A DNA stretch of 62,045 nt from an uncultured Clostridia bacterium (GTDB lineage: Bacteria > Bacillota > Clostridia > Peptostreptococcales > Anaerovoracaceae). The notes beneath the pieces were generated by a model. It had not been told where the DNA came from. It saw only the letters and a list, made by a program, of their open reading frames with translations, and made no database searches. How positions within the stretch are numbered: position 1 is the first letter of the stretch; every line of letters begins with the position of its first letter. Below, piece by piece: positions 24,771 to 28,675 of the stretch. The DNA is taken from contig CALXBT010000083.1 of the NCBI GenBank assembly GCA_944386585.1, positions 1-62,045 on the forward strand, given 5' to 3'. A program made the translations under genes and the position numbers.

Positions 24771-24831
24771 GCTGTCATAAACTGCCGCTGTTTATCTCGG
24801 CCAATTTATTTTTTAAAGTTCCTGCATATCT

Positions 24832-27693
24832 TTAGTTTTGTCCAAGCTGCTCGCAGTACCGCATAAAAATCATCGCTGCCTGCGCACGCGTTGCATTTCC
24901 CTGCGGTATAAGCATGCTGTCTCCCATTCCAGAAATCAGATTATTTCCGATTGCCCACTGCATTGCTGTTTCCGCGTAGCTGCTCACCTTCTCCTCATCG
25001 GAAAAAGCTGAAAGAACGCCGCTGCCGGAAAGATTATAGTCTTTATAAACCGAATAGCGGTAAAGAATTGCCGCAAGCTGCTCACGCGTGATAGGATCCT
25101 TCGGCCCAAACAAATTCTCTCCGTAGCCGTTTACAATATTATTTACCGACGCCCATGCAACTGCTTTTGCATAATACTGTCCGTCTTCTATGTCAGAAAA
25201 AACTGCTTTTCCTGCTTCCGGTTCTTTTTCCAAGCGATACAAAATAGTAACAATCATGCCTCGGTCCATATTAAGCTCAGGGCCAAATTCCGTTTTAGAG
25301 ATTCCCGACATCATATCATTTTCATAAGTATATTGTATCGCATCAAAGAACCAGTCTTCTGCCGACACATCCAGAAACGGCAATGTTTCGTCTGTTTTCT
25401 TTTCCTCTGTAAAGACTGCTGAAACTGTTACCTTTGACGATGGCATCGCAAAAATATATTGATTGTTTCCGCTGGATTTTATAAGGACTGTCTTGCCAAA
25501 GGCATCTGTAACTGTAAGGGTCGTCAGCTCATAGCCATTATCAGGCAAGGCAGTGATCGTTACAGATGTTCCTTCGCTTGCATTTGAGACGCTTACTGTT
25601 ATCTTTCCGTTCTTTGCAGTTTCTGCATTTACTGCATATTTCTGCACAAAAGAGCCTCCCGCCGAGCTTCCGCCTGACTTTTTGCTCCATTGAGCCGTCA
25701 GCTCTGTATTTCCGGTAACTGTATAAGAAGCATCCGCTTTCTGGCCGCTTCCATCATACCAGCCTTTAAAATTATAGCCGTTTCTTACAGGCTCTGGCAG
25801 CATTACCGTTTTTCCGCTCTTCACTTTTATTGTTTCAAAAGTACAAACACCGCCGTTTGCTTTTAAAGTAACTTTAAAATAATCGTCGTTTTCATCTGCA
25901 ATATCAAAGTTTCCCTCTTTTCCGATACCGATTTGTCCGTCTCCACTGATTGGTGTTTCAACATTTTCATCTGCATTCAGAATGCCGTTTACAAGAAGTC
26001 CTCCTCTGTTTGTAATTCCCGCACCACTAACCGTTGCCGTTGTGCCATTAGGAATTGTAAGCGTTGTATTTTCCGGAATTATAATACCGTCCAATAATGC
26101 TGTATCCCCGTCAATCGTAACATTCTGACCCTCTTTAAGATGTCCTCCTTCATATATTTGTCCTGCTGATGGTGTATCAACAGAAACAACCGCGTTGTAA
26201 TTTCCGTCCAACGGCATTTTTATCGTTTCAATGGTGCCGTCCTGATACTGAAACGAAGTGCTTTGCCCTTCGTAATATTCTACCCATACTTCGCCGACTG
26301 CACCTTTTTCCATTTTCAGTCCGGTATTCTGCGGATCAGACGAACTGTTTGCATTAACAAAGACATCTGCACCATGCGCCGAATGATTTCCTGTAATTTG
26401 TCCGTCCGTCATCACCATTTTGGCCGTGCTTGCAATCCAGACGCCGCCTGCATAATATGACGCTTTATTGCCTGTAATCGTACCGCCGTTCATCGTAAAT
26501 CCACCACTGCTGTTGCCGTAATAGATACCGCCGCCGTATCCGCCTGTCGCTTCATTGTCTTGAATGATACCGCCATTCATTGTCAAGGAAGTTCCGCTCT
26601 TATAGTAAATACCGCCGCCATACTTTGCTATACCGTTTTTAATCACAGTTCCTTCTTCTATTACAAGTCCGGAAGCTTCCACTGAAACACAGCCTGCTGT
26701 TTTCATGCCGTCAATCACGATATCTTCCAGCCTAACCTTTGCCCCGCCTGTGATTTCTAAAAGTCTTTCTATTGATGATATTTCCTGAGGCCGAATTTCG
26801 TTTCCTTTTATCGTGATTTCTTTTCCTTCAATTTTTAAAGTACTTTCAATCTCTACATCTTTCAAAATCCTGATTTCAGAGCCCGTTTCTGCTTTTTCTA
26901 CTGCGCTTTCTATCGTGCGATATACTGTTTTAACAGTGTTTTCTGAAGAAACAACAACTGCTTCTCCCAGTTTCGCAGGATCTGTCGTGTAATAAGTATA
27001 ACCCTTTAAGTCCCCGTCATCTTCACTGCCGCCAAGAAATGTTTCGTAAAGTCCCGTTTCTTCAAAAAACACCGGCGGTTCTTCTAATTCCGACCAAATT
27101 TGCACTTCTTCTGCCAATGTCCCGCTATTTAAATGAAATTTCGCACCTTCTTTATCGACATTGACAGCACCCCATTTGTTTCCGTCTGTTTTCAAGCCCT
27201 TTGCCGTAACTTCTGAACCGTTGACTACCAGTCCCGCATTGCCACAATCCTTAATAGTTACATTTTCTAAAACAACTTTCTTCGATTGATAGACATGTAT
27301 CCCTGACTTCGTCTTTTCATTTCCTACAATCACAACATTCTTAATCGTTGCTCCGTTTTCTGCATTTTCAACGGACAAAATATGGTTTTTATTTTCACCT
27401 ACCCAGTCTTCATTGACCATAATAAAATGATTTTGTCCGTCCAGTGTTACACCCTCTGGGACTGTCAGCACCGCCTGATTTTTTCCAAGAGAAGAATCAT
27501 TTACTTCTATATCGTTTGTTAAAACTACTATCTTTTCCTCTTCACTTTCTGCTTCGGCTGCTTCATTAAGCGCCGTTTGCAGCTCCTCCTGCGTCATGAT
27601 TCCGCTTTCACTTTCGGAATCCGCAAATACCGCTGGAGCAGCTATCAGAATCATGCACAGTATCAGCAATACTGATAAAACTCTCTTTTTCAT
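24832..27693 (-). CDS. Large secreted cell-surface protein: signal peptide, right-handed beta-helix repeats, a Listeria-Bacteroides (Flg_new) repeat, an Ig-like segment and three C-terminal SLH domains
   Basis: Start taken at MKKRVLSVLLILCMILIAAPAVFA (ATG 27693, RBS TAAGGAGGA). Repeated G-rich beta-helix turns (GGGIYY..., GGVWI...). NGYNFKGWYDGSG is the Flg_new motif. The C-terminal SLH repeats are F.DV..DWF..AI.Y, FSDI..GQYY..AV.W and FSD...VSSYA..A..W. Confidence 0.88.
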   Translation of the reverse strand: MKKRVLSVLLILCMILIAAPAVFADSESESGIMTQEELQTALNEAAEAESEEEKIVVLTNDIEVNDSSLGKNQAVLTVPEGVTLDGQNHFIMVNEDWVGENKNHILSVENAENGATIKNVVIVGNEKTKSGIHVYQSKKVVLENVTIKDCGNAGLVVNGSEVTAKGLKTDGNKWGAVNVDKEGAKFHLNSGTLAEEVQIWSELEEPPVFFEETGLYETFLGGSEDDGDLKGYTYYTTDPAKLGEAVVVSSENTVKTVYRTIESAVEKAETGSEIRILKDVEIESTLKIEGKEITIKGNEIRPQEISSIERLLEITGGAKVRLEDIVIDGMKTAGCVSVEASGLVIEEGTVIKNGIAKYGGGIYYKSGTSLTMNGGIIQDNEATGGYGGGIYYGNSSGGFTMNGGTITGNKASYYAGGVWIASTAKMVMTDGQITGNHSAHGADVFVNANSSSDPQNTGLKMEKGAVGEVWVEYYEGQSTSFQYQDGTIETIKMPLDGNYNAVVSVDTPSAGQIYEGGHLKEGQNVTIDGDTALLDGIIIPENTTLTIPNGTTATVSGAGITNRGGLLVNGILNADENVETPISGDGQIGIGKEGNFDIADENDDYFKVTLKANGGVCTFETIKVKSGKTVMLPEPVRNGYNFKGWYDGSGQKADASYTVTGNTELTAQWSKKSGGSSAGGSFVQKYAVNAETAKNGKITVSVSNASEGTSVTITALPDNGYELTTLTVTDAFGKTVLIKSSGNNQYIFAMPSSKVTVSAVFTEEKKTDETLPFLDVSAEDWFFDAIQYTYENDMMSGISKTEFGPELNMDRGMIVTILYRLEKEPEAGKAVFSDIEDGQYYAKAVAWASVNNIVNGYGENLFGPKDPITREQLAAILYRYSVYKDYNLSGSGVLSAFSDEEKVSSYAETAMQWAIGNNLISGMGDSMLIPQGNATRAQAAMIFMRYCEQLGQN

Positions 27694-27755
27694 CCTTTGT
27701 ATCCTCCTTATTTTTGCCGATTTACTGGTCTTTTGCATTCTGATATGTTGCTTCA

Positions 27756-27763
27756 CCCCCCCC
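27756..27763 (-). repeat. G8 homopolymer (C8 on the plus strand) 63-70 nt upstream of the surface-protein start codon
   Basis: cttcaCCCCCCCCagt. An unusual tract for this AT-rich genome. Confidence 0.9.
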
Positions 27764-27770
27764 AGTATGC

Positions 27771-27801
27771 AAAAGTGTACCTTTTTAAAAGGTACACTTT
27801 T
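27771..27801. repeat. Near-perfect 31-bp palindrome, AAAAGTGTACCTTTT t AAAAGGTACACTTTT (repeat copies A and A')
   Basis: Read directly. The two arms are exact reverse complements. It could be a recombinase dimer site, a terminator hairpin, or both. Confidence 0.9.
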
Positions 27802-27823
27802 TCCCCGATATGTAGAAATAAGA

Positions 27824-27852
27824 TTGAATTTTAAGTGGTTTTATGCTATGAT
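27824..27852 (+). promoter_or_regulatory. Near-consensus sigma-70-type promoter TTGAAT-17-TGcTATGAT, facing away from the surface-protein gene
   Basis: -35 at 27824-27829, 17-nt spacer, extended -10 at 27844-27852. No plus-strand gene follows; it reads antisense into the recombinase 3' end. Confidence 0.55.
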
Positions 27853-27884
27853 AAATTGGTATAAAGCAAATCTTTAAAATTTGT

Positions 27885-27896
27885 AAAAGTACACTT

Positions 27897-27898
<2 letters not shown>
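27885..27898. repeat. Third repeat copy A'' (AAAAGTACACTTTT), inverted relative to copy A
   Basis: Same arms AAAAG/CTTTT and the same core orientation as A', with 1 nt deleted. It abuts the recombinase stop codon. Confidence 0.8.
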
Positions 27899-28544
<646 letters not shown>

Positions 28545-28643
28545 TTATTTTTGTACACAGTAAGTATGCACCCATAATAAGTTTTCTATAAAAACAGTCT
28601 AATATTATTACAGTCGTTTTTCTTCTCCAAAAAAATTATCATT

Positions 28644-28675
28644 AAAAAAAGGGAACAAATTCCGTTCCCTTTTTT
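28644..28675. terminator. Bidirectional intrinsic terminator
   Basis: aaaaaaaGGGAACaaattccGTTCCCtttttt. Confidence 0.8.

Follow-up and report, generated by a model that had tools for sequence, protein, structure and literature searches.

A Predicted Promoter Inverton Between a Serine Recombinase Gene and a Surface-Protein Gene of a Gut Clostridia-Type Bacterium, and Its Related Cassettes

Genes and Features of the Locus

The window analyzed here, the whole stretch of 62,045 nucleotides, comes from an uncultured gut bacterium of the Clostridia type. On its minus strand it carries a small serine recombinase gene followed by the gene of a large surface protein, and the interval between them holds three related short repeats and a promoter-like sequence (Table 1). 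Resolvase (PF00239) is the sole Pfam domain of the recombinase (E = 6e-30). The product of the target gene contains three SLH domains together with Beta_helix, Flg_new and Flg_new_2 domains; its signal peptide, right-handed β-helix, Listeria-Bacteroides/InlB-B repeats and SLH domains predict a secreted surface protein. Outside its own species, the nearest homolog of this protein covers 38% of the query at 42% identity, and exact-sequence look-ups of the recombinase and the SLH protein returned no record. The species has a G+C content of 42% and is met in metagenome assemblies only.

Within the species, the recombinase gene, the intervening region and the SLH gene form one strain-variable island, which is either present or absent as a unit. 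The island starts at about the promoter-like site upstream of the recombinase gene, and homology to strains that lack it ends ~77 nt upstream of the recombinase ATG. In other strains, this position is taken by TnpV, hsdS genes and a tyrosine integrase.

Table 1. Features of the recombinase and surface-protein locus, numbered from the first letter of the window.
Feature	Position	Strand	Details
Target gene, SLH/beta-helix surface protein	24832-27693	-	953 aa; ORF and domain search
Ribosome-binding site of the SLH gene	27703-27709	-	AAGGAGG
5'-UTR stem	27730-27742, pairing with 27763-27775	-	13 nt, 92%; partner is the outer half of the L site; inverted-repeat search and RNA fold
L site (target-proximal)	27763-27790		CAGTATGCAAAAGT-GT-ACCTTTTTAAAA; contains A; central GT at 27777-27778
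Repeat A	27771-27785		AAAAGTGTACCTTTT
A/A' palindrome	27771-27801		Perfect, terminator-like hairpin; 15 + 15 nt, 1 nt between
Invertible segment	27781-27888		108 bp between identical 10-bp arms; 112 bp between central dinucleotides
Repeat A'	27787-27801		Exact reverse complement of A; 15 nt, 100%, 1 nt apart
Promoter-like site in the segment	27824-27852	+	TTGAAT-17-TG-c-TATGAT, extended TG; consensus scan
R site (recombinase-proximal)	27876-27907		AAAATTTGTAAAAGT-AC-ACTTTTATAAATTTT; two 15-nt arms, 93% complementary; contains A''
Repeat A''	27885-27898		AAAAGTACACTTTT; orientation of A'; equals A' minus one G
Recombinase stop codon	27897-27899	-	TAA; two-base overlap with the start of the R-site repeat arm
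Small serine recombinase gene	27897-28526	-	209 aa; ORF
Promoter-like site upstream of the recombinase gene	28574-28601	-	TAGACT-16-TATTAT; consensus scan

Repeats, Predicted Crossover Sites and a Candidate Segment Promoter

Recombination between two inverted copies of a short repeat had been proposed in the original prediction, which described three elements of 14-15 bp. A re-reading of the sequence and an inverted-repeat search found all three at the coordinates claimed for them, but the sites prove to be longer dyads, designated L and R according to their proximity to the target and recombinase genes. The exact unit common to the three repeats is a 10-mer, AAAAGTGTAC, located at 27771-27780 (+), 27792-27801 (-) and 27889-27898 (-). 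Three matches in 62,045 bases compare with 0.13 expected, a count reached in none of 100 shuffles, and no further copy was found elsewhere in the window. The L and R sites form an inverted repeat of 19 nt at 84% with exact arms of 10 bp, their centers are 114 bp apart, and the central dinucleotide of R is AC (27891-27892). These two sites coincide with the two breakpoints of a natural inversion described below. Conservation of all three repeats in homologous loci held for the two-site layout, which recurs in 104 relatives, but not for the third, internal copy: an extra core lies inside the segment in only 2 of 53 cassettes, and A' was therefore rejected as a third recombination site in the design.

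The near-consensus promoter predicted to read antisense into the 3' end of the recombinase gene was recovered by the consensus scan. As sequenced, it faces away from the SLH gene, so that the orientation present in the window is OFF, as had been proposed, and in the flipped orientation it points toward that gene. The scan of the region yielded four promoter-like sites against 2.8 ± 1.7 expected, a number that alone is not above chance. The position of the segment promoter is nevertheless kept in promoter-bearing relatives, in which a sigma-70-type promoter lies within the segment, its -10 element stands ~39 nt from the center of the crossover site that it faces, and the variable length falls upstream of the -35 element. 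A fixed promoter between the SLH start and the repeats (27693 to 27771) would have spoken against a switch; the consensus scan of the minus strand between 27693 and 27780 found no promoter-like site, and the SLH gene therefore seems to rely on the promoter in the segment. We infer that a sigma-70-type promoter is active in the segment and would drive the SLH gene in the ON orientation.

Natural Occurrence of Both Orientations

Orientation was surveyed in same-species contigs from about ten samples by alignment and junction searches, with assemblies rather than read counts as the unit. The contigs were found by way of the near-identical cluster representatives P0001, to which the window recombinase is 99% identical, and P0121, together with a neighboring Sm_multidrug_ex protein; a search of the metagenome contig collection with the recombinase 3' end plus the R arm as the pattern gave no same-species contig. 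One clean 14-kb scaffold of the species (L003; ENA ERZ28614855), whose recombinase is 99% identical to that of the window, equals the window with 27781-27888 reverse-complemented. Its alignment to the window shows 1 mismatch in 501 bp if the segment is flipped, as against 73 if it is not, and the single mismatch falls in the recombinase gene. This scaffold is thus the exact product anticipated for recombination between A and A'', with the promoter aimed at the surface-protein gene.

The same junction was found in a second sample, in a fold-back contig (L014) that leads from the recombinase gene across the segment and returns to the 3' end of that gene; the OFF junction and an ON-specific junction thus stand in one contig. 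Its ON arm bears a SNP, GGA to TGA, and may therefore stem from a co-resident strain rather than from a clonal subpopulation. Another contig (L005) breaks exactly at the repeat arm, ending in ...AAAAGTGTAC. The OFF orientation of the window recurs in L001/L009, L002/L013, L004, L006, L007 and L097; among assemblies of the species, seven samples are OFF versus one or two ON. A second flipped pair comes from outside the species and joins a Lachnospiraceae MAG (L053) with the isolate Merdimonas faecis BR31 (L062): identity is 93-97% in their flanks, but in the interiors it is 62% as read and rises to 89% when one is flipped. The segment 27781-27888 thus occurs in both orientations in natural gut samples of one species.

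It could be objected that nothing switches here, and that A/A' is a bidirectional terminator, A'' a repeat that is vestigial or due to chance, and the flipped contig a misassembly. The A/A' palindrome does fold well on both strands, metagenome assemblers can err at inverted repeats, and the fold-back contig is itself an artefact. The flipped junctions must nonetheless exist in the reads, because the shared arm of 10 bp is shorter than assembler k-mers; the 14-kb scaffold is clean and matches the flipped model with its one mismatch; three copies of the 10-mer lie far above chance; and the two-site layout and both orientations recur across the 104 relatives, the M. faecis isolate included. With these observations in hand, the objection is extremely unlikely to hold. 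The repeats, the natural inversion and the layout shared by more than 100 related cassettes are demonstrated, and the locus is very probably a promoter inverton that acts as a phase-variation switch for the surface-protein gene, in line with the original prediction in its essentials.

Affinities of the Recombinase

Among solved structures, the closest to the window recombinase is that of Sin/Tn552 Bin3 (2r0q; E = 1.6e-30 over residues 5-159), followed by the Tn3 and γδ resolvases, whereas Gin structures match it more weakly (E = 2e-13). None of the NCBIfam models reaches its cut-off for this protein. The Mpi model NF009949 reaches 48.9 of the 272 bits that its cut-off requires and so does not place the recombinase in the Mpi family, and the IS607 model scores 26.8 bits against 110. 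An IS607-like transposon had been considered on account of TnpB-like genes that follow some relatives, and was dropped in view of this score and of the match of those loci to the csrA-tldR architecture discussed below. By sequence, the recombinase is closer to Sin-type resolvases than to the Hin/Gin or Mpi invertases.

A protein search returned at least 8,000 matches at E <= 1e-20. Those listed are mostly 75-82% identical to the window recombinase and include proteins of Flavonifractor plautii (P0106, 79%) and Lawsonibacter. The protein belongs to a very large recombinase family of gut Clostridia, in which thousands of proteins are 65-82% identical to it and the alignment is near-invariant across most of its length; the predicted catalytic serine is Ser12 of YARVS, which is invariant.

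A Family of Cassettes with Regular Spacing

Scans of species-representative genomes, metagenome contigs and viral contigs provided 240 recombinase loci, 222 of which could be evaluated. At 104 of the 222, a GTGTAC-type dyad lies 2-29 nt past the recombinase stop codon and has an inverted partner 105-187 bp away. Relatives encoded on viral contigs are 48-78% identical to the window recombinase, most of them about 62-69%; the site pair was found in 3 of 74, and these relatives, being mostly without it, were left out. The family consensus of the site is T...AAAnGT-GT-ACTTTT...A, which the R site of the window matches. At R, the dyad symmetry reaches out to about ±12-13 bp; at L, it is less pronounced. 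In a TldR-linked subgroup, a sigma-28-type promoter takes the place of the sigma-70-type promoter. Promoter direction assigns 59 of the 104 loci to OFF and 9 to ON and leaves 36 undecided.

This linkage, which the window and the 104 relatives share, suggests that the recombinase adjacent to the switch in the window catalyzes its inversion. The inversion could instead be real but catalyzed in trans by another recombinase, with the neighboring gene a resolvase or mobile-element remnant linked to the site by position. Global invertases that act on many distant sites are known, such as Mpi of Bacteroides fragilis and RecV of Clostridioides difficile; only 62 kb of the genome is in view, and the closest relative of the window recombinase in sequence, Sin, is a resolvase. 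Catalysis in trans is very unlikely all the same, given that the site falls no more than 30 nt from the recombinase stop in 104 loci from many genera, that the recombinase gene and site travel together beside unrelated cargo, and that recombinase, switch and SLH gene are present or absent in the species as one island.

The center-to-center distances of the two sites in the 104 loci take only the values 105, 113-117, 124-129, 134-139, 145-147, 158, 166-168, 177 and 187 bp, with the 114 bp of the window in the main class (113-117). The nine separate classes fit one helical repeat, with a best-fitting period of 10.55 bp and a mean resultant length of 0.80 for all loci and 0.78 in 80 dereplicated clusters, values whose nominal p-values overstate the evidence because the loci share ancestry. 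The periodicity was not imposed by the method, since the site finder accepted any distance of 60-259 bp. Such spacing suggests that the two sites need helical phasing across a very short loop.

Beyond the L site, a co-oriented ORF with a ribosome-binding site begins within 400 nt in 47 of 52 cassettes from the genome scans, and about two-thirds of these ORFs start 24-61 nt from it. Among the 47 downstream genes are TnpB/TldR-like genes (7), MmeI-type methyltransferase/restriction genes (4), and genes of SPFH proteins (3), BspA-type LRR surface proteins (3) and SNF2/PLD helicase-nucleases (3), as well as glycosyltransferases, GtrII, an acyltransferase, SLH/Flg_new proteins and CsrA. Surface proteins, restriction-modification, glycosyltransferases and flagellar regulators are typical phase-variable cargo. 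In Flavonifractor sp. An306 (L092), the order is a recombinase gene, whose product is 72% identical to that of the window, then a 115-bp switch, CsrA, a TnpB/TldR-like ORF and flagellin.

Sites That May Double as Hairpin Halves

On the recombinase-sense strand of the OFF state, the A/A' hairpin has a predicted folding energy of -18.9 kcal/mol (z = -5.25) and lies between the invertible segment and the SLH gene, while the R dyad is weak and AT-only (-5.8 kcal/mol, z = -1.84). A terminator scan passed over the A/A' hairpin, owing to its 9-nt loop or to the T run being taken into the stem. The original prediction that inversion dismantles this hairpin is borne out for the path from promoter to gene, from which it is gone, but in the fold of the ON scaffold it is found again, with UUUUU behind it, just past the stop codon of the recombinase gene (-16.1 kcal/mol, z = -6.0). 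It can form again at the recombinase end because A'', the R arm, supplies the same 10 bp as A. At this locus, the hairpin would then always stand behind the promoter, as a read-through block in the OFF state and as a recombinase terminator in the ON state.

As a general rule, a hairpin that always lies behind the promoter was rejected, since most relatives hold a strong hairpin at R in the OFF state, in front of it. The R site of most OFF relatives forms the tip of a long palindrome, behind which a T run follows, and energies reach -39 kcal/mol; R exceeds L in strength by at least 5 kcal/mol at 33 of the 59 OFF loci. In ON relatives, L and R are both weak, as expected if inversion splits the hairpin. 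The window, with its strong hairpin at L, represents a minority type, and its hairpin logic is lineage-specific.

These folds also bear on the possibility that the segment inverts mainly for control of the recombinase, with antisense RNA on the 3' end of its gene lowering switching in the OFF state and the effect on the SLH gene secondary or absent. At the window, the OFF promoter does read into the recombinase gene through the weak R dyad, and assemblies are biased toward OFF, by 7 to 1-2 in the species and 59 to 9 in the family. The strong R hairpin of most relatives would, however, stop such a transcript, so that antisense control is not the conserved function, and the co-oriented genes that follow the L site in 47 of 52 cassettes point to a downstream target. 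Control of the recombinase as the main role is accordingly rated very unlikely, although it and control of the SLH gene are not mutually exclusive.

Proposed Mechanism

In the promoter inverton that we favor, the recombinase would bind two dyads of roughly 26-32 bp, R over its own stop codon and L 114 bp away in inverted orientation. Strand exchange, presumably at the central GT/AC dinucleotides, would invert the 108-bp segment and with it the predicted sigma-70-type promoter. In the OFF state, this promoter would fire antisense into the 3' end of the recombinase gene, leaving the SLH gene promoterless, and the A/A' hairpin would guard the latter from recombinase read-through. In the ON state, the promoter would face the SLH gene over a hybrid site and a leader of ~85 nt, and a hairpin rebuilt from the R arm and A' would lie behind it as the recombinase terminator.

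Expression of a large, S-layer-anchored surface protein in an uncultured gut bacterium would thereby be toggled ON and OFF by DNA inversion, and surface variation of this sort bears on how phages and the immune system recognize a cell. The locus provides a precise and testable model, with defined sites, a predicted crossover dinucleotide, a candidate promoter and a putative relocating terminator.

Comparison with Known Systems

A promoter inverton beside a surface-protein gene is a classical design, and the type is common in gut Clostridia. Hin, a small serine recombinase whose catalytic domain is N-terminal, acts on hix dyads of ~26 bp that have A/T-rich 12-bp halves and an asymmetric 2-bp center, and the promoter on its invertible segment switches a surface structure. 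The segments inverted by Hin, Gin, Cin and Pin measure ~1-4 kb and depend on a Fis-bound enhancer, which for Hin and Gin lies within the start of the recombinase gene. The window shares with Hin and Gin a small serine recombinase and a dyad geometry close to that of hix and gix, but its segment is 108 bp long, its recombinase gene stands outside the segment, and the sequence of the recombinase does not place it in the Hin/Gin subfamily. Firmicutes are not known to have Fis, and a Hin-type enhancer appears unlikely at the window in view of its short segment and Fis-less phylum.

Mpi of B. fragilis is a serine recombinase that flips short (~200 bp) promoter segments of surface structures at many distant promoters. 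Both systems belong to gut commensals and use short promoter segments; in the family of the window, however, the recombinase gene abuts its own site and the repeat sequences are different. RecV of C. difficile, a tyrosine recombinase, has its gene at another place in the genome, and its cwpV and flgB elements measure ~150-200 bp; at cwpV, the promoter is fixed outside the element, and it depends on the orientation whether the leader forms a terminator hairpin. Like these elements, the switch in the window is short, lies upstream of a surface gene (flgB being flagellar) and occurs in an organism of the Clostridium class. It differs from cwpV in that the promoter is inside the element, the hairpin relocates, and the recombinase is of the serine rather than the tyrosine type. 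Sin and β resolvases resolve directly repeated res sites with the help of an accessory site II and HU-type proteins. The window recombinase has the domain order of Sin and Tn552 Bin3 and is closest to them by sequence, and this similarity is its one link to Sin: the sites in the window are inverted, and the natural product is an inversion.

The nearest precedent is a set of ~120-bp inversions that follow 'hin' and lie upstream of csrA-tldR-flagellin loci in F. plautii and Oscillibacter (PMC13418256, Nat Microbiol 2026; preprint 10.1101/2025.07.22.666180). The main text of that paper covers the inversion in one paragraph and does not deal with sites, family breadth, a spacing rule or hairpins. 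The csrA-tldR loci have recombinases of the same family as the window (Flavonifractor proteins 72-79% identical) and an inversion right after the recombinase stop, with a size of 115 bp in L092 as compared with 114 bp in the window. GTGTA-type dyad sites are common to both, and the window shows the features of this type, namely a homologous recombinase and an inversion in the range of ~105-190 bp just past its stop, with GTGTAC-type dyads. The csrA-tldR loci have a FliA (sigma-28)-type promoter and csrA, tldR and flagellin as cargo, whereas the window has a sigma-70-like promoter and an SLH/β-helix surface protein; two further features, the additional A' copy and the hairpin that relocates, are specific to the window. 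Since L092 shows exactly the layout of the published loci, the family phenomenon has already been seen, with csrA-tldR cargo only. In the literature searched, inverton surveys included, neither the site motif nor the recombinase family is described beyond the one paragraph in the main text of that paper.

The interest of the locus rests less on the locus itself than on the regularities of its family: the portability of the cassette, the quantization of spacing and sites that double as hairpin halves. Together, these suggest a broader reading, which we hold tentatively as a genuine possibility. The cassette, a Sin-like recombinase with a promoter inverton of 105-187 bp, may be a self-contained, horizontally spreading 'plug-in' for almost any gene; its sites, on the same face of the helix, may synapse across a tight loop independently of an enhancer or Fis, as an uncharacterized subclass of serine invertases; and they may serve as movable terminator halves. 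The 10.5-bp quantization offers a handle on the synapsis by a serine recombinase of sites only about 115 bp apart. A 26-bp site motif after a conserved recombinase gene may also permit hundreds of phase-variable genes to be predicted from sequence in Oscillospiraceae and Lachnospiraceae, among them genes of surface proteins, restriction-modification, glycosyltransferases and TldR/flagellin regulators.

The Leader of the Surface-Protein Gene

An Rfam scan of 27500-28100 recognized no known RNA, with one match far under threshold (E = 0.98), and a riboswitch or sRNA at the switch was dropped as a candidate. The leader of the SLH gene does contain the 5'-UTR stem listed in Table 1, which pairs with the outer half of the L site. 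The loop of this stem holds a run of G residues, corresponding to the C residues at 27756-27763 on the plus strand, that is 7, 8 or 9 long depending on the sample.

Relatives of the Recombinase at TldR Loci and in Viral Contigs

Among loci of related recombinases in other genomes and metagenomes, comparable switches are located upstream of TnpB/TldR-like genes in L022, L024, L028, L031, L032, L043, L082, and L092, and the gene order in the last of these is CsrA, a TldR-like ORF, and flagellin. This placement and gene order tie the recombinase family to the csrA-tldR loci for which ~120-bp inversions have been reported (PMC13418256). A sigma-28-type promoter pointing at the recombinase was identified by pattern match in L024, L028, L031, and the related locus L029, while the pattern used found no match in the remaining TldR-linked relatives (L022, L032, L043, L082, and L092).

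In the TldR-upstream cassettes, the sigma-28-type promoter occupies the position of the window’s sigma-70-like promoter, whereas the window’s own sigma-28/FliA-like element lies elsewhere, reading in the same direction as the sigma-70-like promoter and overlapping A’, the repeat copy at 27787-27801. The sigma-D consensus of Bacillus is TAAA-N15-GCCGATAT. The window’s element could be a remnant, or it could act as an additional promoter.

Sequence features of the switch region and its flanks
Feature	Position	Strand	Location	Basis
Sigma-28/FliA-like element, TAAA-N14-CCCGATAT	27786-27811	+	inside invertible segment	sequence match
Homopolymer run	27756-27763	C on +, G on SLH-sense strand	SLH leader, between L site and RBS	
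Strong bidirectional terminator-like hairpin, AAAAAAGGGAAC...GTTCCCTTTTTT	28645-28675	both		repeat and terminator sequence features

Recombinase relatives also occur in prophage and viral contigs (L178-L257), where identity ranges from 48 to 78% and is mostly about 62-69%. A GTGTAC site pair follows the gene in only 3 of 74 instances in viral contigs, and the role of these relatives probably differs from that of the switch-linked recombinases.

Spacing of the Crossover Sites

The centre-to-centre distance between crossover sites is quantised in 104 loci of the family (drawn from L017-L257); a period of 10.55 bp fits best, and the observed classes are 105, 113-117, 124-129, 134-139, 145-147, 158, 166-168, 177, and 187 bp; the variation in cassette length is located upstream of the -35 element. 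One family locus, L050, contains two L-type cores that face the same way, at offsets of +105 and +147 relative to the R core. Because both spacings are allowed values, inversion at this locus may have two alternative end points.

Variation Within the Species

The C/G run in the SLH leader, which is outside the coding frame starting at ATG 27693, varies in length among same-species samples, with 7 residues in L097, 8 in the window, L002, L003, and L013, and 9 in L001, L004, L007, and L009. These differences could mean that slipped-strand variation adds to that of the switch, or they could be noise from assembling a homopolymer.

At L007:3366, in a contig with the switch OFF, an A5 run is shortened by a 1-nt deletion, which breaks the recombinase gene into two ORFs; either the strain is locked in nature or the assembly is wrong at this point. 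In L014 (ENA ERZ28614661), the fold-back arm bearing the ON junction carries a GGA to TGA change (- strand, near position 114) that would cut 4 residues off the recombinase, and its presence on this arm suggests two co-resident strains with unlike switch states.

In four further same-species contigs, which represent other strains (L010, L011, L012, and L016), the region downstream of the Sm_multidrug_ex gene, corresponding to about 24800-28600 of the window, is without the recombinase, switch, and SLH gene. These contigs carry instead TnpV, one or two hsdS (Methylase_S) genes, and a phage-type integrase, a gene content resembling that of a type I restriction-specificity shufflon. Phase-variable islands have a hot spot at this position, and the terminator-like hairpin stands immediately outside the variable island, between the Sm_multidrug_ex gene and the recombinase promoter region.
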